Source: Candidatus Iainarchaeum sp.
GTDB taxonomy: Archaea > Iainarchaeota > Iainarchaeia > Iainarchaeales > DTGL01
Direction of reading: 5' to 3'
Assembly (NCBI GenBank): GCA_038736825.1
Contig: JAVYME010000001.1
Location: forward strand, 102,708-134,707
Length of the DNA stretch: 32,000 bases
Both the position numbers and the translations under genes were made by a program. Below the pieces are notes generated by a model. It was not told the origin of the DNA. It saw only the letters and a list, made by a program, of their open reading frames with translations, and searched no databases. Of the stretch, positions 1 to 7,808 are shown in pieces (position 1 is the stretch's first letter; every line of letters begins with the position of its first letter).

Positions 1-120
1 GGAGGCAGAACTGTTTCTTTCAGGAATGCAAAAAAGGCAATCACTGCTTTTTTAAAGGCAGAATTTGTGGGCGGCAGGCATTTGCGGAGAATAGAAAAAA
101 TTGCAGCACTCGAGAGATGA
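1..120 (+). CDS. 3' end of an unidentified upstream ORF (partial, enters from the window edge)
   Basis: Frame 1 is open from base 1 to TGA 118-120 (...AEFVGGRHLRRIEKIAALER*). Its stop overlaps the archease ATG (ATGA at 117-120), the same coupling used elsewhere in the window. No family recognised. Confidence 0.35.
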   Translation, partial: GGRTVSFRNAKKAITAFLKAEFVGGRHLRRIEKIAALER

Positions 121-542
121 AAATGTTTGAATTGTTTGAGCACAAGGCAGACATTGGAGTGCGCGGTTATGGAAAAACGCTTGAAGAAGCCTTTCAAGAG
201 TGCGCGAAGGCAATGTTCAGCGTAATGTCAAACCTGAAAAAAGTCAAAGCCAGAGAAAGCATTGAATTGCGAGTTAGAGCGAGAAATGAAGAAGAATTGC
301 TTGTTGCCTGGTTAAACGAATTATTGTTTGAAAAAGGCACAAAAGAAATGCTGTTCTCTGAATTCAAAGTGAAAATTTCAAAGGAAAAAGAAGGACTGGT
401 TTTGAAAGGCACAGTGAAAGGCGAAAAAATGAACCACAAAAAACATGAAATGAAAACAGAAGTCAAAGGAGCAACCTATTCTGGCTTGAAAGTGATTAAA
501 GAAAAAGAAAAGTATTTAGCGCAATGCATTGTCGATGTATAA
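117..542 (+). CDS. Archease (RtcB activator/chaperone)
   Basis: 141 aa. The N-terminus FELFEHKADIGVRGYGKTLEEAFQECAKAMFSVM matches the archease hallmark (F-E-H-x-A-D-I ... G-x-T-L-E-E-x-F). Size is typical. Confidence 0.85.
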   Translation: MKMFELFEHKADIGVRGYGKTLEEAFQECAKAMFSVMSNLKKVKARESIELRVRARNEEELLVAWLNELLFEKGTKEMLFSEFKVKISKEKEGLVLKGTVKGEKMNHKKHEMKTEVKGATYSGLKVIKEKEKYLAQCIVDV

Positions 543-579
543 AGCAATTGCAGCAAAGCCGCGTGGTTTGACAATAATG

Positions 580-587
580 TTTAAATA
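580..587 (+). promoter_or_regulatory. Candidate archaeal TATA box (TTTAAATA) for the surface-protein cassette
   Basis: TTTAAATA ends 24 nt before ATG 611, which implies a leaderless or near-leaderless mRNA. The same octamer recurs at 6549-6556 and 28959-28966. Confidence 0.4.
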
Positions 588-610
588 GTGGAAATGCGTA
601 ATATTTGAGA

Positions 611-853
611 ATGAAAAGATTTGGTTTTTTGCCTTCAGTTTTTTACTGTCTCGCCATGTTCGGCTTGATTTTCACGCTAGTGGCAGCCCAAGAAGAAGTA
701 AGGCAGCTTTCCATTAAAATTGAAGGCTTGCGCTATGTAAGGCATGAAACAGTAACCATTACGGCGCTTTTTGATGGGCAACCCGTTGCTGGCGTTGATG
801 TAAATGTTTTTTTCAAAGATTTGAACCTGAAAAAACAGACCAAAACAAAATAA
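611..853 (+). CDS. Secreted protein, N-terminal fragment (signal peptide plus first half of an Ig-like / CarboxypepD_reg-like beta-sandwich)
   Basis: ATG at 611 (the track's TTG at 605 is less likely). Hydrophobic signal sequence FLPSVFYCLAMFGLIFTLVAAQ, then VTITALFDGQPVAGVDVNVFF. The ORF stops at TAA 851-853 in mid-domain. Confidence 0.6.
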   Translation: MKRFGFLPSVFYCLAMFGLIFTLVAAQEEVRQLSIKIEGLRYVRHETVTITALFDGQPVAGVDVNVFFKDLNLKKQTKTK

Positions 854-855
854 TA

Positions 856-1410
856 TTGCAAAGAATAGAAGATTATAAGACAGACAGTCAAGGCAAGTTT
901 TCCTTTAAATTGCATGAAGCCGGCACTTACTTTTTATTTTTTGCCAAAAAAGAAGGAACCATTTTTTACGCAGCAAGCGAAAAAATAGATTTTTTGATAA
1001 ATCCAAGACCATATTTCAGTGCAAGCAATGGCGTTTACAATCTTTGCTTTAGGGAACCAATTGGCTCAATAACAATCATTGAAGGCGAGAAAAGAACAAC
1101 CCAAAGCCTTGATGAAAACAATTGCACTCAATACTCTCCAAAAACAGAGTCCTTCACAGTTGAAACCCCTTACAGCAAAGAATTCAAAAAGATTTCAATA
1201 CCAGTAAAAGTTGAAACAGAAAAACCAACCCCTGTCCCAACACAACCCACTCCAATACAAACACAATTTGAAGAAAAAACAAAGCCGATTTCACAACCAA
1301 AAACACAAACCCAGCCAGACTTACTGTTACCTATCAGCATATTGTTAGTTGCAAGCATATGCTTGGTTGCTGCAGGAGTTTACCTCAGAAAACGGAGGAT
1401 GAATTCATGA
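856..1410 (+). CDS. C-terminal fragment of the same surface protein (second half of the beta-sandwich, Pro/Thr/Gln stalk, TM anchor)
   Basis: No ATG, no SD and no signal peptide. It begins with KTDSQGKFSFKLHEAGTYFLFFAKKEG, which completes the domain begun in 611-853, and ends with PTPVPTQPTPIQTQ...LLLPISILLVASICLVAAGVYLRKRR. Frame 1 is already open from 799. Confidence 0.6.
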   Translation: MQRIEDYKTDSQGKFSFKLHEAGTYFLFFAKKEGTIFYAASEKIDFLINPRPYFSASNGVYNLCFREPIGSITIIEGEKRTTQSLDENNCTQYSPKTESFTVETPYSKEFKKISIPVKVETEKPTPVPTQPTPIQTQFEEKTKPISQPKTQTQPDLLLPISILLVASICLVAAGVYLRKRRMNS

Positions 1411-3542
1411 AAAAAATACTCTTTGTTTTGGCTCTTTTTTTAATGCTTTCCTGTGCCAATGCAGCAAAAAAAATCCAGCTCACTGTAGAAGACGACGGCA
1501 TTGACCCAGTAACCCCAGAAGAAGATGCTGACACAAAAGACAAAGCATACCTTGTAGTAGGACCAGGGCCTTACACTTTGACAGTCAAAATCCAAAACTT
1601 GCAGGAAATAGAAGAGTTTGGCGGTCCAGTTGATGTAATGGCTTTATTTGATGCCAGTTATAGCTTTAATGATGAAATCGAGGTTGTCAAAAATGACATA
1701 GAAAAACTTGGAGCAGAACTGGATCAAAACTGCCAAAAAATAGGCATTCCGGGGTGCTTCAATTTAGGGCTTTACGTTTTTGAAGGAGGCACTTGCGCTA
1801 GAAATTGTTCCAACCAATATGTTTGCACTCAAATAAATTGCAGAATAGTCACAGTTAAAGATTGGTGCACTGAGTGTACTGTAATAACAATTCCAGGCAA
1901 GTGCCAAGTTTGCGATTATGAAACTGAATGCCGTGAGGTTTGTGAATTGCGTGATAACGTGAAAGTATGCTGGCCAGAGTGCCACGAAGTGCCAAAAAAC
2001 TGTCGAATGGAGCCATGTGACACATACAAGTGGGATTGCAAACTAGTGCCTTGCTTTGTAGAAGAAGAGGTATGCGATGAACATTGTGAATGGCAAGAAG
2101 TTTGTGGTTGGACTGTGTGCAAAAGGCCTGATGCTGCTTTTTGGAATTCCACTGATTTCCAGCAACCAGTGACTCCGCCATTGCCTTTGGATTATGCAAA
2201 CGATGTTGGCTTGCTTCCCATAACAAACAATATGACGCTTGTCAAAAACAACTTGGAAAAAATTAGTGCTCCAAACTTTTCAACACAACAGCTAGAGCCA
2301 TGGGGTAGCATTATAACCTATGTTTTGAATGCACCTGAAGTAAAATGGCAGGAAAACCACCGGAGGGCAATAATATTAATCACGGATGAAAAAGATGATT
2401 CTGGCACTTACAAGACTGCAGCACAACTTGCAAAAGACCAAAACGTGGTTGTGTTCGGCATTATTGGAAAAGGAGTGGGTTCAGATGAAGCGAAAGCCAA
2501 TGCTGAATATGTTGCAAACCTGACAGGCGGAAAGGTTTTCACTTATACAAATTCTGAAGAAATAAAAGCCCTATTGCGTGAAATAATGGGCTCACTCATA
2601 AAAGAAGACACTTTTGTTTTTTCAAAAGAATTAGGGCCTAACTGGGATGGAATAACTGCAAATTTTGATCTGCCGCCGGTTCCAAGAAAGGGACCCGGAC
2701 TTGTTTACCCAATCAAGGGCCTTGCTCCAGCGGTTTGGCCTACAACTGAGGAATATTTCCATTACAGGGTTTCCTTGAAAAGCAATCCGGCTGTTTTTGA
2801 TGATGCTTGGGTTAGAGTGACCATTAATACGCCGCCAACTGCCGATTTTGAAATGATTCCAACTCCGCCAACTGGAATGGTGCCTTTAAGCGTAAAATTC
2901 GTCAACAAATCAACAGACAACGAAGGAAACATTACAAACTACCATTGGGTTTTTGGCGATCCATCTTCAGGAGCAGACAATGAAAGTAATGAAGAAAACC
3001 CAACACACGTTTTCCAATATGCTGGAGAATATTCAGTCACTCTTACAGTAACCGACAGCGGGCAAGCAAGTCACAGTGTTACAAAAAAAGTCATGGCAAA
3101 AGAAAGGCCCCTAATTTCTGCGTTCAAGGCGAATAATCCCAAGACACCAGATGAAGGACTGGACATCACGGTTTACTGCACAAAATTCCAAGCCTTAATC
3201 AAAATAGAAATACTGGACAAGGATGGATTGTTGGTGACAAAGGACAAAGACGGCAACCCCATAACAAACCCAATAAAAATTCCTGGAACAAATGATTGGC
3301 CGAGATGCGGAAGCACCATTAGCCCTGACATCAGGCTTTCAAGCGGAGTCTACCAAATAAGGGCAACAATAATGAAAGATGATGGCAGCGGTCCAGACCC
3401 GGATTGCACTAATTGTCCGAAAAGCACACACATAACCGTGGGAATGAGCGCACCAGAAATGCAAACCCCAGAAATTCCAGCAATACTAACAACAATAATA
3501 GCGCTTGCAGTGATTGTCATTACAAACAGGAAAAAGAAATAG
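1407..3542 (+). CDS. Anchored surface protein: signal peptide, vWA domain carrying a Cys-rich insert, PKD domain, Ig-like domain, C-terminal TM
   Basis: Start taken at ATG 1407 (ATGA overlap with the upstream stop), giving signal peptide MKKILFVLALFLMLSCANA. MIDAS DASYS at 1650-1664. 22 Cys between 1731 and 2120. vWA C-half motifs RAIILITDEKDD, VVVFGIIGKG and GGKVFTY. PKD motifs PLSVKFVNKSTD...YHWVFGD...HVFQYAGEYSVTLTVTD. C-terminal anchor PAILTTIIALAVIVITNRKKK. Confidence 0.8.
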   Translation: MKKILFVLALFLMLSCANAAKKIQLTVEDDGIDPVTPEEDADTKDKAYLVVGPGPYTLTVKIQNLQEIEEFGGPVDVMALFDASYSFNDEIEVVKNDIEKLGAELDQNCQKIGIPGCFNLGLYVFEGGTCARNCSNQYVCTQINCRIVTVKDWCTECTVITIPGKCQVCDYETECREVCELRDNVKVCWPECHEVPKNCRMEPCDTYKWDCKLVPCFVEEEVCDEHCEWQEVCGWTVCKRPDAAFWNSTDFQQPVTPPLPLDYANDVGLLPITNNMTLVKNNLEKISAPNFSTQQLEPWGSIITYVLNAPEVKWQENHRRAIILITDEKDDSGTYKTAAQLAKDQNVVVFGIIGKGVGSDEAKANAEYVANLTGGKVFTYTNSEEIKALLREIMGSLIKEDTFVFSKELGPNWDGITANFDLPPVPRKGPGLVYPIKGLAPAVWPTTEEYFHYRVSLKSNPAVFDDAWVRVTINTPPTADFEMIPTPPTGMVPLSVKFVNKSTDNEGNITNYHWVFGDPSSGADNESNEENPTHVFQYAGEYSVTLTVTDSGQASHSVTKKVMAKERPLISAFKANNPKTPDEGLDITVYCTKFQALIKIEILDKDGLLVTKDKDGNPITNPIKIPGTNDWPRCGSTISPDIRLSSGVYQIRATIMKDDGSGPDPDCTNCPKSTHITVGMSAPEMQTPEIPAILTTIIALAVIVITNRKKK

Positions 3543-3608: not shown

Positions 3609-5051
3609 ATGGCATTGTTAAAAATAAGGGATTTTGTTTGGGAAATCCCGAAAGAGGGAAAAATGCGCGTTCCAGCAAGGCTTTACGTGGACCAAAAAAT
3701 GATTCAAGAACTGGAACGCGAAGAGCAAACCAATTGGAGCACTTTAAGGCAGTTGAAAAACATTGCTTCCCTGCCTGGCATTCAAAGCCCTGCACTGGCT
3801 TTGGCTGACTGCCATCCAGGTTATGGCGCGCCAATTGGCAGTGTTGCCGCCATGGATTTAAAGGAAGGCGTTATTTCTTTTGGATGCATTGGGTTTGATG
3901 TGAATTGTGGAGTGCGCACTCTTGCAACCCTGTTAAAAAAAAGCGAAGTGGAGAAAAGGAAAAAAGAGCTTGCAGAAGAGCTTTTCAAAAACGTGCCAGC
4001 AGGGCTTGGCGTTACAGGAAAACTCAAATTAAGCCAAAGCGAAATTGACGAGGTTTTAGTGAAAGGCGCTGAATTTTCCCTTGCAAAAGGTTATGGTTTC
4101 AAAGAGGACTTGGAGTTCATTGAAATGAATGGAAAAGCAAGGGACGCAAACCCGGAAAATGTTTCGCTCAAGGCAAAACAAAGACAGTTCAAGGAAGTCG
4201 GCACTCTTGGTTCAGGCAATCATTACCTGGAAGTGCAATTCGTGGAAAAAATATTCGATGAAGAAATCGCACAAGCCTTTGGATTGTTTGAAGGGCAAAT
4301 CGTTGCAAGCATTCACTGTGGAAGCAGGGCATTGGGCCACCAGATTGGCGCAGACTATCTGGTGGAACTGAAAAAAGCCTCAGAAAAATACAAATTGCAT
4401 TTGGCAGACCCTGAACTGGTGTCAGCGCCAATTGAAAGCGAAGAGGGAAAAAAATATTTTTCCGCTGTGAGCGCTGGAATGAATTGCGCTTTTGCAAACA
4501 GGCAGGTTTTAGCACACCTTGCAAGGGAATCCTTTGCAAGGGTTTTTGGAGTGAATGAAAGGGAAATACGGACTTTTTACGAGGTTGGCCATAATACTGC
4601 AAAAATAGAAGAGCATGAAGTGGAAGGAAAGCAAAAGGAATTGCTTGTGCAAAGAAAAGGCTCTACAAGGGGTTTTGGCCCTGAAAGGAAAGAAGTGCCA
4701 GCACAGTATAGAAAGTTTGGACAGCCAGTACTGGTTGGCGGGACAATGGGCACTGCCAGCTATGTTTTGGCTGGAACAATAAAAGGAATGAAGGAAACCT
4801 TTGGTTCGGCAGTGCATGGTGCTGGAAGAAAACTTAGCCGGAATGCAGCAATCAAGTCTTTCAAGGGAGAACAAATTGCAACAGAATTGAACAAAAAGGG
4901 AATAATAATCAAAACGCATTCATGGAAAGGCATTTCAGAGGAAGCTCCTCAAGCTTACAAGGACATAGATGAAGTAATAGAAATAATGGCTGTCACAGGA
5001 ATCAGCAGAAAAGTTGCAAGGCTCAAGCCAATGATAACAATAAAGGGATGA
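3609..5051 (+). CDS. rtcB: RNA-splicing ligase RtcB (3'-phosphate/5'-hydroxyl tRNA ligase)
   Basis: 480 aa with RtcB hallmarks: CHPGYGAPIG, GFDVNCGVR, GSGNHYLEVQ, HCGSRALGHQ, EVGHNTA, GGTMGTASYVL, SAVHGAGR. Confidence 0.95.
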   Translation: MALLKIRDFVWEIPKEGKMRVPARLYVDQKMIQELEREEQTNWSTLRQLKNIASLPGIQSPALALADCHPGYGAPIGSVAAMDLKEGVISFGCIGFDVNCGVRTLATLLKKSEVEKRKKELAEELFKNVPAGLGVTGKLKLSQSEIDEVLVKGAEFSLAKGYGFKEDLEFIEMNGKARDANPENVSLKAKQRQFKEVGTLGSGNHYLEVQFVEKIFDEEIAQAFGLFEGQIVASIHCGSRALGHQIGADYLVELKKASEKYKLHLADPELVSAPIESEEGKKYFSAVSAGMNCAFANRQVLAHLARESFARVFGVNEREIRTFYEVGHNTAKIEEHEVEGKQKELLVQRKGSTRGFGPERKEVPAQYRKFGQPVLVGGTMGTASYVLAGTIKGMKETFGSAVHGAGRKLSRNAAIKSFKGEQIATELNKKGIIIKTHSWKGISEEAPQAYKDIDEVIEIMAVTGISRKVARLKPMITIKG

Positions 5052-6517
5052 AAATGCAGTTAGAGGAAAAAAAAATCCTTTTTTTAACATTGTTCTTTTT
5101 CTTTATTTCTTTTGGTGTAAGGCTTTCATTAATGGAATTAAGGCCATTGCATCACGATGAGGGCGTGAATGGCTATTTTATAAGCAATATAGTGGAAGGA
5201 CGCGGCTGGAAATATGATCCAGAAAACTATCATGGACCGACATTTTTCTACATAACAGCGGTTTCTTTCCTTGCTTTCGGCGGAAATATTTTTGCGCTCA
5301 GGATTGTGCCAGTAATTTTTGGCTGCCTGCTGGTGCTAGTGCCATTCCTTCTCAGAAAAAGGCTCGGGTTTTGGGGTGTGCTAACAAGCACGTTTTTCCT
5401 CGCTTTCTCACCTGCACTCCTCTATTATTCCATGGATGCAATTCACGAAATCCTCTTCACGTTTTTCATGACTGCATCGCTCGTGCTTTTCCTTGAATTT
5501 GCTTCAGAAAAAAAGCCATGGATGCTTTTCGGGGGAAGCGCTTGCCTTGCAATGTTTTTGGCTACAAAGGAAGCTGCCTTCATAATAGGCCCTTTTATAG
5601 TGATTCTTGCAATTTTCTTCAGTTTTGCAAAGGAAAAAAAAACAGAGAATAAATTGGAAGGCAAAAAAATTGCATTTTTAATTGAATTTTTAGTTGCAAT
5701 TGCAATATTTTTTTCAATTTACATTCCTCTTTTCACTTCTTTTTTTCAGAACTGGAATGGGTTGGAGGATTCTGTTAAAACCCTTGGATTGTGGGGTCCA
5801 AGAGTGATTGTGGAAAAAGGTCATGACAAGCCTTTCCCTTATTATTCTGGATTGCTGTTGTTCAGCGAGTTGCCGCTTCTAGTGGCAGGCATTGCGGGAA
5901 TGCTTTTGGCGTTCTGGAAAAGGAACGTTTATTTTTGCGTTATCGGCGTTTTTTTCATTGCAATGTTTTTAGGGGTTTCCGCTGTTCCCTACAAAACCCC
6001 TTGGATTGCAATAAACTTTTTGCCGCCTCTTGCGCTTCTCTCGGGATTTACAGCAAGAGAGTTTTTTGGCGTTAAAACTGGACTTTCAAGGCAAGCCGGC
6101 TTGCTGGTGCTAGGAGTGGTTTTTGCTCTTGTGTTATGGCAATCATATTATGTGAATGTTGTTGCTCCTGCAGCAGAGCGCTCTGAGGAAAATCCCTGGG
6201 TTTATGTGCAGACAACAATGAGTGCAAAGAAGGCATTTGAAAGGGCACTGGCAGCAGATGGAAAAATCCTCATTGCATTGGAGAATGAGAGCACTTGGCC
6301 CATGCCTTGGCTTTTAAGGGAAAAAAAAGTGGAATACCATGGAAGGGACTCTTTGGAGTCTGCTGAATTCTTGCATGGTTTTGAAGTGCTCATAGTGCAC
6401 AGGAATCTGGGGGAAATTGTTGTAGGAAAGATTCCAGAATATGAGCGCTTTGGGTTTGATTTGCGTCCAGGAGTGCCTTTGGATGCATTTTTCGCGCAAA
6501 AAAAGCAAAATCCCTGA
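5048..6517 (+). CDS. Polytopic GT-C-fold membrane protein, TIGR03663-like (Agl23 / ArnT-PMT related)
   Basis: About 12 hydrophobic segments. The N-terminal loop LRPLHHDEGVNGYF...WKYDPENYHGPTFFYITA resembles the HHDE ... YDP-x-YHGP signature I recall for TIGR03663. ATGA overlap with the rtcB stop. Confidence 0.65.
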   Translation: MKMQLEEKKILFLTLFFFFISFGVRLSLMELRPLHHDEGVNGYFISNIVEGRGWKYDPENYHGPTFFYITAVSFLAFGGNIFALRIVPVIFGCLLVLVPFLLRKRLGFWGVLTSTFFLAFSPALLYYSMDAIHEILFTFFMTASLVLFLEFASEKKPWMLFGGSACLAMFLATKEAAFIIGPFIVILAIFFSFAKEKKTENKLEGKKIAFLIEFLVAIAIFFSIYIPLFTSFFQNWNGLEDSVKTLGLWGPRVIVEKGHDKPFPYYSGLLLFSELPLLVAGIAGMLLAFWKRNVYFCVIGVFFIAMFLGVSAVPYKTPWIAINFLPPLALLSGFTAREFFGVKTGLSRQAGLLVLGVVFALVLWQSYYVNVVAPAAERSEENPWVYVQTTMSAKKAFERALAADGKILIALENESTWPMPWLLREKKVEYHGRDSLESAEFLHGFEVLIVHRNLGEIVVGKIPEYERFGFDLRPGVPLDAFFAQKKQNP

Positions 6518-6548
6518 TTTTAACTTGTTAACTCAATAAAAGGAAATA

Positions 6549-6556
6549 TTTAAATA
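6549..6556 (+). promoter_or_regulatory. Candidate TATA box (TTTAAATA)
   Basis: Same octamer as at 580, located 38 nt upstream of GTG 6594. A second AT-rich box, TTTATTATAT, lies at 6571-6580. Confidence 0.35.
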
Positions 6557-6593
6557 CTTGAAGGGCGCTATTTATTATATCTACTAAATCCGG

Positions 6594-7808
6594 GTGGTTG
6601 GTTTGAGGAATGAATTTTTTGCTCTAGCCGTTTTTTCGCTCTTGCTTTTGGGCAGCAATGCTTTTGCCTTGCCCAACTGCAACATGGTTTTCTTTGAATT
6701 GTACAATGTGGAATTATGGGAAGGCTCCAAGGAAACATTCACTTTTGCAATTAACAACACAGGCAATGAAAGATTCTACATTGACAAAGTAAACGCTTTT
6801 GATTTCTCTGAGGGAATTGCAGTGCAAGAAGAATACTGGGGCGACGTAGTTCTCCCAGGAGAAAAAGCCTTTGCCACAATATCCGTTAAAGCAGACAAAG
6901 GAACAGAGGAAAGGGAAAGAAAGGCATACATAGAGCTCAGCGGCCGCTTTTTGGGAGGAAAAAGGTGTTCTTTTTCGGATGTGCACGGCGAATTCAATGT
7001 AAGCGTGCTCAAAGAACCAGTGCACAAGATTGAACCCAGGTGTGATGGCTTTTCACTCACTGCCCCAAAAGAAAAATACATTGAGGGCGAAGGCACAATA
7101 GAGTTTTTTGCCTCAAACAAAACCAATTATGATGCAATCATAACACTGGAAAGCGAAAGCATTAGCGTAAGCGAAAGCGTTTTCCAGTTAAGGAAAGGCG
7201 AAGAAAAAAAGTTTTCTGCCTTCATTAAAAGCGATGCTGACCGGGCAACACTCAAATACAATGTAAGGGTAAGCGATTGCGGCATACCCTCTCAGGAAAC
7301 AAGAATTTATTCAGCAATGGAAACACCAATTCCAACACCAACCCCTCAACCCTTTAAAGCCATTGAAATAGGAGCATCAGCCTCTAAAGACGCAAACGGC
7401 TTCCTTGTAACAGTGGAAATCCACAATCCAAACAGTGAAGGCATTATCGGAAACCTTGAAGCAATTGTGCCACAAGGGTGGACTGTAATAGGGGAAAAGG
7501 CGGTTTTGGCTGAACCTCTTTCAAAAACAATTTCCCTTATAAGGATTGCACCACCAAAGGGAGCAAGCGGAACACACCCCGTACAAATAGTATTTTCATA
7601 TGATGGAATTGAGGAAAGCACAAAATTAGAGCTTGCAACCGGAAGCGAAGGCTTTGACTTTGGCGGAGCAGCCTTTGCAGTGCTTGGCTCAGGAGCATTC
7701 CTTATAGGACTAATAATCGTGGCAATAATACTGATAATAATGCTTTTCTCAAGCCCGCCAAGGCAATACTTTGAACCATGGCTGGAAGCAAAGGAAACCA
7801 AAAAATGA
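6594..7808 (+). CDS. Anchored surface protein with three CARDB/NEW3-like beta-sandwich modules
   Basis: GTG start. Signal peptide FFALAVFSLLLLGSNAFA. Modules include TFTFAINNTGNERFYIDKV and LVTVEIHNPNSEGIIGNLEAIVPQGWTV (NEW3/CARDB-like pattern). Stalk TPIPTPTPQP. C-terminal TM AFLIGLIIVAIILIIMLF. Confidence 0.6.
   Translation: MVGLRNEFFALAVFSLLLLGSNAFALPNCNMVFFELYNVELWEGSKETFTFAINNTGNERFYIDKVNAFDFSEGIAVQEEYWGDVVLPGEKAFATISVKADKGTEERERKAYIELSGRFLGGKRCSFSDVHGEFNVSVLKEPVHKIEPRCDGFSLTAPKEKYIEGEGTIEFFASNKTNYDAIITLESESISVSESVFQLRKGEEKKFSAFIKSDADRATLKYNVRVSDCGIPSQETRIYSAMETPIPTPTPQPFKAIEIGASASKDANGFLVTVEIHNPNSEGIIGNLEAIVPQGWTVIGEKAVLAEPLSKTISLIRIAPPKGASGTHPVQIVFSYDGIEESTKLELATGSEGFDFGGAAFAVLGSGAFLIGLIIVAIILIIMLFSSPPRQYFEPWLEAKETKK

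Follow-up and report, generated by a model that had tools for sequence, protein, structure and literature searches.

In the β subunit of integrins, an extended disulfide-bonded loop, the specificity-determining loop (SDL), projects from the βI domain near its metal-ion-dependent adhesion site (MIDAS) (PMC3255974). Integrin-β-like proteins were reported in cyanobacteria (Yutin et al. 2009; PMC2651865), and CglB from Myxococcus is described as a substratum-coupling adhesin having a von Willebrand factor A (vWA) domain (PMC9946355). Nested cross-strand disulfides hold together the two-stranded hairpins of the cystine-ladder peptides, such as θ-defensins, gomesin, tachyplesin, and protegrin (PMC13408038, PMC6099743). 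Here we analyze a gene from Candidatus Iainarchaeum sp., located at 1407-3542 (+) in a stretch of 32,000 nucleotides (nt) of contig JAVYME010000001.1 (assembly GCA_038736825.1, positions 102,708 to 134,707 of the forward strand; hereafter the window). Its product (hereafter the query) is a type-I surface protein of 711 amino acids (aa) with 27 Cys in total, in which a Cys-rich module interrupts a vWA domain at the position of the integrin SDL and most likely forms a long cystine ladder.

Inserted "arms" near the MIDAS are also carried by the vWA domains of pilus-tip adhesins. Archaea of the DPANN group rely on contact with their environment or with other cells, and their surface proteins are, to our knowledge, almost entirely unannotated. 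The query is identical to the NCBI entry [quoted passage not shown] and is thus labeled merely as a PKD domain-containing protein. A preliminary description made from the DNA sequence had proposed a surface protein whose vWA domain is interrupted by a Cys module without a named family; the fate of its claims is given below where the evidence bears on them.

The vWA domain and the position of the insert

On the intact query, the Pfam VWA profile matched only aa 283-389 (profile positions 65-171 of 174). With aa 129-258 deleted, VWA (PF00092) matched in a single stretch over positions 1-171 of 174, with 31.6 bits vs a cut-off of 23.8. A model of aa 1-470, calculated by AlphaFold2 (AF2) with a 12-sequence family alignment, has a mean pLDDT (predicted local distance difference test score) of 83 and a complete topology, β1-α1-β2-[insert]-β3-α2-α3-β4-α4-β5-α5-β6-α6, with β1 at 75-82, α1 at 85-111, β2 at 118-125, β3 at 268-273, β4 at 319-326, and α6 at 385-397; the pLDDT is about 90 or above across most of the C-half. 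Insert-less relatives give the same picture: in most relatives, where the two halves are contiguous, the conserved EPW motif follows the end of β2 (YVFEG) at a distance of 34-46 aa, vs 168-258 aa in seven insert-bearing proteins (the query, P0002, P0003, P0017, P0018, P0019, and P0030). The preliminary description had read a single vWA fold resuming after the insert, and proposed structure prediction of the flanks as a check; the insert-deleted Pfam match, the AF2 topology, in which both halves belong to one vWA fold, and the insert-less relatives all agree with that reading. The stretches of the C-half on which it relied lie at 2364-2399 (RAIILITDEKDD), 2445-2474 (VVVFGIIGKG), and 2526-2546 (GGKVFTY).

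By its residues, the MIDAS is complete: D82, S84, S86, E297, and D327 are present in the query and conserved in the family, and metal binding is predicted. The segment D82-A-S84-Y-S86, encoded at nt 1650-1664 where the DASYS motif had originally been noticed, is followed by D89-E90. Two of the Cys residues first assigned to the module, C109 and C117, belong to the vWA domain itself, in its α1-β2 segment, and insert-less relatives have them too. This leaves 20 Cys for the inserted module proper, aa 128-239.

A Foldseek comparison of the query model with the PDB ranked the headpieces of integrin β2, β1, and β3 first (E 3.9e-11). For the homologue P0019, modeled independently and at full length, the same integrin β headpieces were on top (E 4.3e-11), and the lower matches included the pilus-tip adhesins PitA and SpaC, Sec24, and a bacterial vWA protein. 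When the family profile was compared with PDB sequences, the integrin β6 stretch "yPvDLyyLmDlSaSMdddL" aligned onto the β1/MIDAS segment, and a second β6 stretch, "LPLTNDaerF...tpEGGfdaimq...kIGWRnDs.hllvfvsDa", aligned onto LLPITNN (β3), E297-P-W, W314, and ITD327E. The R of GWR is Q in the query, and R is the family consensus. We take the integrin β3 MIDAS stretch DLSYSMKDD to correspond to DASYSFNDE of the query, D89-E90 to stand at the place of the β3 ADMIDAS (adjacent to MIDAS) pair D126-D127, and E126 to stand at the place of β3 D158. The profile alignment to β6 and β3 supports the assignments of D89/E90, E297, and W314, and it supports an insert directly before the LPIT strand. Among the signature motifs of integrin βI domains, the acidic pair after DxSxS, the Glu of the α2-α3 loop, the GW motif, and the β2-β3 insertion were all found.

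Since the insert stops just before the β3 strand, in the β2-β3 loop, its position is that of the SDL; judged from these alignments, it occupies the site of the integrin specificity-determining loop by the MIDAS. Presentation from the ligand-binding face of the vWA domain, as had been suggested for the module, gains support from this placement, the SDL site being next to the MIDAS in integrin β.

We do not claim membership of the query in the integrin β family. Pfam Integrin_beta (PF00362) gave only 15.8-18.2 bits vs a cut-off of 24.8 and covered profile positions 5-43 of 248; on the intact query, this weak sub-threshold match covers aa 74-111. No PSI, I-EGF, or β-tail domains were found in the Pfam scan of the query, and the protein encoded by the adjacent partner gene (see below) has no β-propeller. 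Both its motifs and its best fold matches liken the vWA domain to that of integrin β. In addition, β strands border it on both sides (limits in Table 1) and are similar in size to the split hybrid domain into which the βI domain of integrins is inserted. The N-terminal β segment and the post-vWA β-strand domain (aa 20-72 and 399-470) may be the two parts of one split, hybrid-like β-sandwich, which would require that they pack against each other.

The Cys-rich module

Exactly 22 Cys were counted in the 130 aa encoded at 1731-2120 (aa 109-238), as had been stated in the preliminary description, and each of the motifs listed there (CTEC, CQVC, CREVC, CWPEC, CDEHC, CEWQEVC, and CGWTVC) is found in the query. 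The rest of the protein has 5 Cys in 581 aa, a frequency of 0.86%; at this rate, a stretch of 130 residues would contain 22 or more Cys with a probability of about 6.5e-22. When the N-terminal profile was run exhaustively with HMMER against 1.84 billion representative proteins, it returned only 60 relatives, seven of which are insert-bearing. No module-bearing protein outside this vWA family was among the matches of this search. Neither the query module nor any of the seven modules matched a Pfam or NCBIfam family at E<=1, the seven-module profile gave no Pfam match either, and the PDB sequences gave chance-level matches only, the best being E 0.77 for the module and, for the seven-module profile, LDLR-A at E 0.12. 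Thus the impression that the module belongs to no named family held for Pfam, NCBIfam, and the PDB. Its presumed novelty stands as far as these libraries are concerned. The β2-β3 insertion site itself is a common hot spot and not unique. The DNA of the module contains no tandem repeats, so it is not a recent repeat expansion.

All members have in common a core motif, C-x3-C-x(2-3)-D-[D/N]-V-x2-C-x3-C, which is degenerate in P0018 (NDQT). Counted from the D-[D/N]-V centre, the Cys residues of the query lie at distances of 5, 9, 15, 18, 27, 30, 39, 44, 50, and 54 to the left and of 4, 8, 15, 20, 27, 32, 39, 43, 49, and 54 to the right. Left and right distances mirror one another in 7/7 homologues despite widely differing spacing, and the number of Cys per arm is equal in every one of them (10/10, 9/9, 9/9, 9/9, 6/6, 10/10, and 12/12). 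The arms also covary, which was the test originally suggested for Cys pairs: among the 5040 possible assignments of left to right arms in the seven proteins, the pairing of each protein with its own arm has the lowest total mismatch. The Cys residues missing from P0002 relative to the query are exactly C154 and C216, and those missing from P0003 are C134 and C233; in both cases the missing residues are the partners predicted by nesting, with a chance of about 0.05 per event. In three members each arm has nine Cys, an odd number, so that full oxidation needs cross-arm bonds. The 6+6 Cys of P0018 are mostly isolated single rungs, 7-10 residues apart. Local pairing of Cys within each arm was considered and rejected in view of the odd per-arm counts in three members and the losses across arms.

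The AF2 model has aa 128-182 and 185-239 as one continuous β-hairpin with pLDDT of 70-92 by block; fully stretched, strands of 55 residues would span about 18 nm. As far as sequence and prediction go, the module has the features by which a cystine-ladder hairpin is defined, an antiparallel two-stranded arrangement with nested cross-strand Cys pairs. It is most likely a cystine-ladder ribbon with about ten cross-strand disulfides, and not a knot or a metal site; the disulfides would have to form, and the ribbon be extended, as the pairing pattern and the model suggest.

Several observations weigh against this structure. In the bulge-free AF2 register (i+j=367), only 4/10 Cys pairs are directly opposite. 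The shift is 1 residue in four others and 3 residues in the remaining two, which would call for β-bulges or for a ribbon of lower regularity. When the alternation of short and long gaps is preserved, the mirror symmetry has p 0.13 for the query and 0.23 for P0003; because alternation explains much of the symmetry of a single sequence, the strength of the argument lies in the covariation across proteins. For P0019, the module of which is longer and poorly aligned, AF2 gives a tip hairpin of 21+22 residues with pLDDT of 47-65 and values below 50 in the other parts of the module. The module is known from only seven sequences, and these do not align reliably with one another. The conservation of D-[D/N] at the tip may reflect no more than a favorable two-residue β-turn. 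Finally, a lone two-stranded ribbon of 18 nm is physically unusual, and it may pack onto the partner protein or oligomerize.

Three of these points, namely the six of ten Cys pairs that are off the exact register of a straight hairpin, the part of the symmetry that alternation alone accounts for, and the low confidence over most of the P0019 module, would be expected if the AF2 hairpin were an artefact and the disulfide-rich module in fact folded compactly, as a knot or as stacked small hairpins of the granulin, TNFR, or EGF type. The nested topology itself could also fold back on itself and hence be compact. We consider a compact domain unlikely. It does not account for the equal arm counts in 7/7 members, the covariation of the arms, the joint loss of cross-arm partners, or the odd per-arm counts in three members; moreover, the granulin, TNFR, EGF, and furin-like families gave no Pfam or PDB match at E<=1, and the query hairpin was predicted with pLDDT of 70-92.

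Metal binding is a further alternative, in which CxnC dyads would make up five Cys4 sites for Zn or Fe in the style of zinc-ribbon or rubredoxin knuckles. The 20 Cys of the query do fall into five groups of four (for example, CTEC...CQVC and CREVC-x8-CWPEC). However, the dyad spacing is not constant (x2 to x4), the single cross-arm pairs dropped by P0002 and P0003 leave two-Cys remnants, the Cys of P0018 are for the most part isolated rungs and not Cys4 clusters, and the module is extracellular, between a signal peptide and a C-terminal anchor. Zinc-ribbon and rubredoxin-like families were unmatched in the Pfam search, and the conserved Cys4 sets of two CxxC knuckles that characterize them were not found in the module family. 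The conserved unit is thus the Cys pair and not the Cys4 cluster, which favors disulfides over Zn or Fe sites, and we regard metal sites as very improbable. Of the "disulfide-knotted or metal-binding insert" of the preliminary description, the disulfides are retained, but the knot gives way to a long hairpin on the evidence of symmetry, covariation, and the AF2 model, and the metal-binding part is disfavored.

Two other ideas about the module were tried. An electron conduit of Cys4-metal sites was rejected for the spacing of the sites, which would be about 3.5 nm, and for their lack of conservation. Half of the residues of the module are V, I, T, Y, W, F, or C, and a membrane-inserting or pore-forming hairpin was considered as well; both faces of the predicted ribbon are polar (mean hydropathy about -0.3), with polar and charged residues on each, so the ribbon is not membrane-inserting.

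Distribution and divergence of the family

All named sources of the family are Candidatus Diapherotrites/Iainarchaeum, of the DPANN group (Nanobdellati), in line with the small-genome archaeon that had been presumed as the source of the DNA. A word-indexed homologue search with the full protein returned three family members, the remaining matches being PKD-only, and the 12-sequence alignment returned four. A scan of genome contigs found only the already known P0002 contig, the scan of metagenomes gave the P0019 locus only, among the matches listed, and a scan of viral contigs found no family locus.

The module is the fastest-evolving part of the protein. Apart from Cys, its identity to the query is 22% in P0002 and 17% in P0003, vs 55-68% in the vWA flanks. 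Across the family, the modules have 112-176 residues with 6-12 predicted rungs, arms of 54-90 residues, and net charges of -23 to +9. In insert-less members the β2-β3 loop is about 20 aa long with one Cys. The β2-β3 site is a hot spot for elaboration in this clade. Three N-terminally anchored giants, P0031, P0034, and P0039 (1149-1394 aa), each with two or three vWA domains of the type found in this family, carry another kind of insert at the same site, about 110 aa long and with about 6 Cys. Many insert-less members (P0022-P0029) have a small Cys-rich loop after β4 (ISDEPxDxC...C), on the MIDAS side, which the ribbon-bearing members do not have; the post-β4 Cys loop and the ribbon look like alternative elaborations of the ligand face. 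P0030 has, besides its 24-Cys ribbon, an extra segment of ~190 aa (aa ~110-290), not Cys-rich and apparently between α1 and β2.

Both types of protein can occur in one genome. The 287,762-bp contig Ga0118719_1000021 encodes the ribbon-bearing P0017 (L003 10001-12040) and the ribbon-less P0076 (L005 10001-12283), each with its own partner gene, and the retention of both paralogue types suggests diversified specificities. At another locus (L007 69-1790), a neighboring gene encodes a protein with a PKD domain, a C-terminal β domain, and an anchor nearly identical to that of P0019, topped by a non-vWA head. A shared stalk with a different head suggests head swapping on a common stalk.

The partner gene and possible functions

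Directly upstream of the vWA gene, abutting or overlapping it, a partner gene is present in 8/8 loci examined. In all eight it encodes a protein with a signal peptide and a C-terminal transmembrane (TM) anchor, and the translated partners (n=5) contain one or more transthyretin-, CarboxypepD_reg-, or DUF4198-like β-sandwich domains, the DUF4198 matches being sub-threshold at 25-31 bits. Such a conserved, tight gene pair argues for co-expression and probably for a complex, and the vWA protein and its partner may well form a heterodimer. A point that counts against a two-subunit protein in this organism is that the partner gene of the window is frameshifted into open reading frames (ORFs) 605-853 and 856-1410, with the break at a T7 run (near 806-812). 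Its orthologues encode one uninterrupted protein of 251-264 aa; an assembly error, a pseudogene, or phase variation could account for the split.

In our view it is somewhat probable that the query is a membrane-anchored receptor or adhesin in which an integrin-β-I-like MIDAS head carries, at the SDL site, a ribbon stapled by about ten disulfides. The PKD domain, an Ig-like domain, and the C-terminal TM anchor would form a stalk holding the head off the membrane. The MIDAS would bind an acidic ligand residue in a metal-ion-dependent manner, and the disulfide-stapled ribbon, projecting about 18 nm from the ligand-binding face if extended, would provide rigid reach and specificity, with a surface and a length that diversify. 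The partner protein would be made and used together with the head, as a heterodimer. Only the Cys scaffold is kept while surface, charge, and length diverge fast, and for this reason the ribbon is most likely an element of rigid reach and specificity. More speculatively, the whole could be a two-subunit, integrin-like receptor, made up of the β-like head and the TM-anchored partner, in which the SDL-derived ribbon of >100 residues, with 6-12 nested rungs and ~18 nm or more in length, is a structural module of a new type and acts as a "spear" of variable surface and length that extends through the envelope toward a partner cell or substrate; we put this forward as a tentative possibility.

The ribbon structure is also compatible with a different role, in which the protein is a structural component of the envelope, its ribbon and MIDAS face binding the partner or the S-layer as an inter-subunit interface or spacer instead of serving as an external adhesin. 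The tight coupling of the partner gene in 8/8 loci would fit such a role, as would the fact that the integrin SDL contacts the α subunit as well (PMC3255974). It would also fit the length of the partner, which is 251-266 aa at insert-bearing loci vs 444-563 aa at three insert-less loci, and the core-genome context of the locus, beside RtcB and the ribosomal operon. On the other hand, the surface of the ribbon evolves fast and its charge flips sign, which is atypical of a conserved interface within a complex unless the partner co-varies, and the presence of insert-bearing and insert-less paralogues in one genome suggests diversified specificities. We therefore regard an envelope-structural role as rather doubtful and favor the receptor or adhesin.

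Gene layout and neighborhood

The features of the two genes are collected in Table 1. The ORF list gives 1359-3542 (+), 727 aa. We take the ATG at 1407 as the real start because a GGAGG lies 8 nt 5' of it, because it overlaps the stop of the upstream gene as ATGA, and because orthologous genes on two other contigs have the same Met start and the same 4-nt overlap with the preceding gene. The signal peptide, the PKD domain at 2832-3092, the Cys-containing β domain, and the TM helix with a KKK tail of the preliminary description are all present in the sequence.

Table 1. Features of the vWA gene and its partner gene (nt positions in the window; aa numbered from the ATG at 1407)
Feature	nt	aa	Strand	Basis or remarks
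Partner gene: signal peptide, DUF4198-like β-sandwich, Pro/Thr linker, TM anchor	605..1410		+	
Signal peptide (MKKILFVLALFLMLSCANA)	1407..1463	1-19	+	Sequence; AF2 helix 2-16; predicted cleavage site
N-terminal β segment with conserved E-D-A-D-T motif	1464..1622	20-72	+	AF2 strands 23-29, 54-64; conservation
vWA N-half: β1, MIDAS, α1, C109/C117 pair, β2 ending E126	1623..1787	73-127	+	
Inserted Cys module, 20 Cys	1788..2123	128-239	+	Predicted antiparallel β-ribbon, arms 128-182 / 185-239
Hairpin tip D183-N184-V185, family motif D-[D/N]-V	1953..1961	183-185	+	Flanking Cys at -9, -5, +4, +8
Linker back into vWA core, 23 aa	2124..2192	240-262	+	
vWA C-half: β3 (LLPIT), E297-P-W, W314, β4 with D327, β5, β6, α6	2193..2600	263-398	+	
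Post-vWA β-strand domain (FVFSKELGPNWD...DDAW)	2601..2816	399-470	+	AF2 strands 401-469; conserved across family
PKD domain	2832..3092	476-562	+	Pfam PKD_4, PDB ColH PKD
C-terminal β-sandwich, four Cys (591, 634, 667, 670)	3093..3446	563-680	+	
T-P-E motif, TM helix, RKKK tail	3465..3539	687-711	+	

PKD_4 passes the Pfam threshold over aa 496-560 (E 5.7e-15, 55.6 bits vs a cut-off of 27), and the PKD domain of ColH in the PDB matches at E 1e-16. The four Cys residues of the C-terminal β-sandwich are invariant in a three-sequence alignment, and in the AF2 model of P0019 the C-terminal β domain has strands within 596-685 with pLDDT of about 90. At the C terminus, the family (including P0017-P0033) shares a consensus of [ST]-P-[ED], a TM helix, and a basic tail. 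No NCBIfam model of a CTERM sorting signal passes in 18 family members; Loki-CTERM reached 12.8 bits vs 19.9, in the query only. The motif resembles the PEP-, PEF-, and PGF-CTERM signals and may represent either an archaeosortase-type signal not yet described or simply an anchor.

The two surface-protein genes separate archease (117-542) from its functional partner RtcB (3609-5051), and RtcB lies 3' of the vWA gene in two other loci as well (L001 and L002). It is followed by a PMT/PMT_2-like membrane glycosyltransferase (5048-6517), kept downstream in L001, and by a further protein with a signal peptide and a TM anchor but no family match (6594-7808). The region 5048-7808 could be a surface-protein glycosylation neighborhood. 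The rest of the window contains ribosomal protein L3 and an apparent ribosomal protein operon.

Comparison with known systems

Many elements of this protein are of kinds already known: vWA adhesins, prokaryotic integrin-like heads, loop insertions near the MIDAS, and short cystine-ladder hairpins. What is new is their combination and scale, a predicted module of 112-176 residues and 6-12 rungs at the SDL site, with no library match, in a rare family. In the literature that we searched, neither this family nor any long cystine ladder is described. We propose the structure from prediction and from the covariation of the arms in only seven sequences, and the adhesive function itself is one that we infer. 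A role in contact with a partner or host, as put forward in the preliminary description, is a possible one.

Together, these results delineate a family of integrin-β-like heads in Diapherotrites/Iainarchaeota, with a partner gene at every locus examined, and they point to the ligand-specificity loop of integrins as a hot spot for invention here, with a Cys-laddered ribbon in one subclade. If the proposed structure is correct, no natural cystine ladder in the literature searched comes near the ribbon in length, and the ribbon, as a very simple rigid rod of nanoscale dimensions, would be of interest to protein design. The tip, the ribbon surface, and the MIDAS offer handles for finding the attachment targets of these archaea. 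The family also adds an archaeal data point on the origin of integrin-type heads outside eukaryotes.

Among the described systems, CglB is a prokaryotic vWA/MIDAS surface adhesin, as the query probably is. It differs in being an outer-membrane lipoprotein of a gliding machine, and it is not known to carry a similar hairpin insert, a PKD stalk, or a TM anchor. The cystine-ladder peptides are free antimicrobials of 16-18 residues with 2-3 rungs, whereas the module is an insert of ~112 residues (up to about 176) in a domain loop; we note a resemblance only and do not imply homology. The pilus-tip vWA adhesins (PitA, 7w6b; SpaC, 6m48; also RrgA and GBS104) resemble the query in having a MIDAS-bearing vWA domain at the end of a stalk; theirs is inserted in a β-sandwich, as that of the query appears to be. 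However, they are sortase-anchored, isopeptide-stabilized bacterial pilins, their arms are short and without a Cys ladder, and their sequence relationship to the query is undetectable beyond the vWA domain.

Integrin β itself has most in common with the query: DxSxS followed by acidic residues, an α2-α3 loop with Glu where Thr is usual, the GW(R) and TD motifs, a Cys-bonded β2-β3 insertion near the MIDAS, β segments flanking the vWA domain, and a type-I TM anchor. Unlike the query, it has PSI, I-EGF, and β-tail domains as well as cytoplasmic motifs, and its partner contains a β-propeller. The clearest contrast is in the loop, which in the integrin SDL is about 30 aa long with one disulfide and in the query is a predicted ribbon of 112 aa with 20 Cys.

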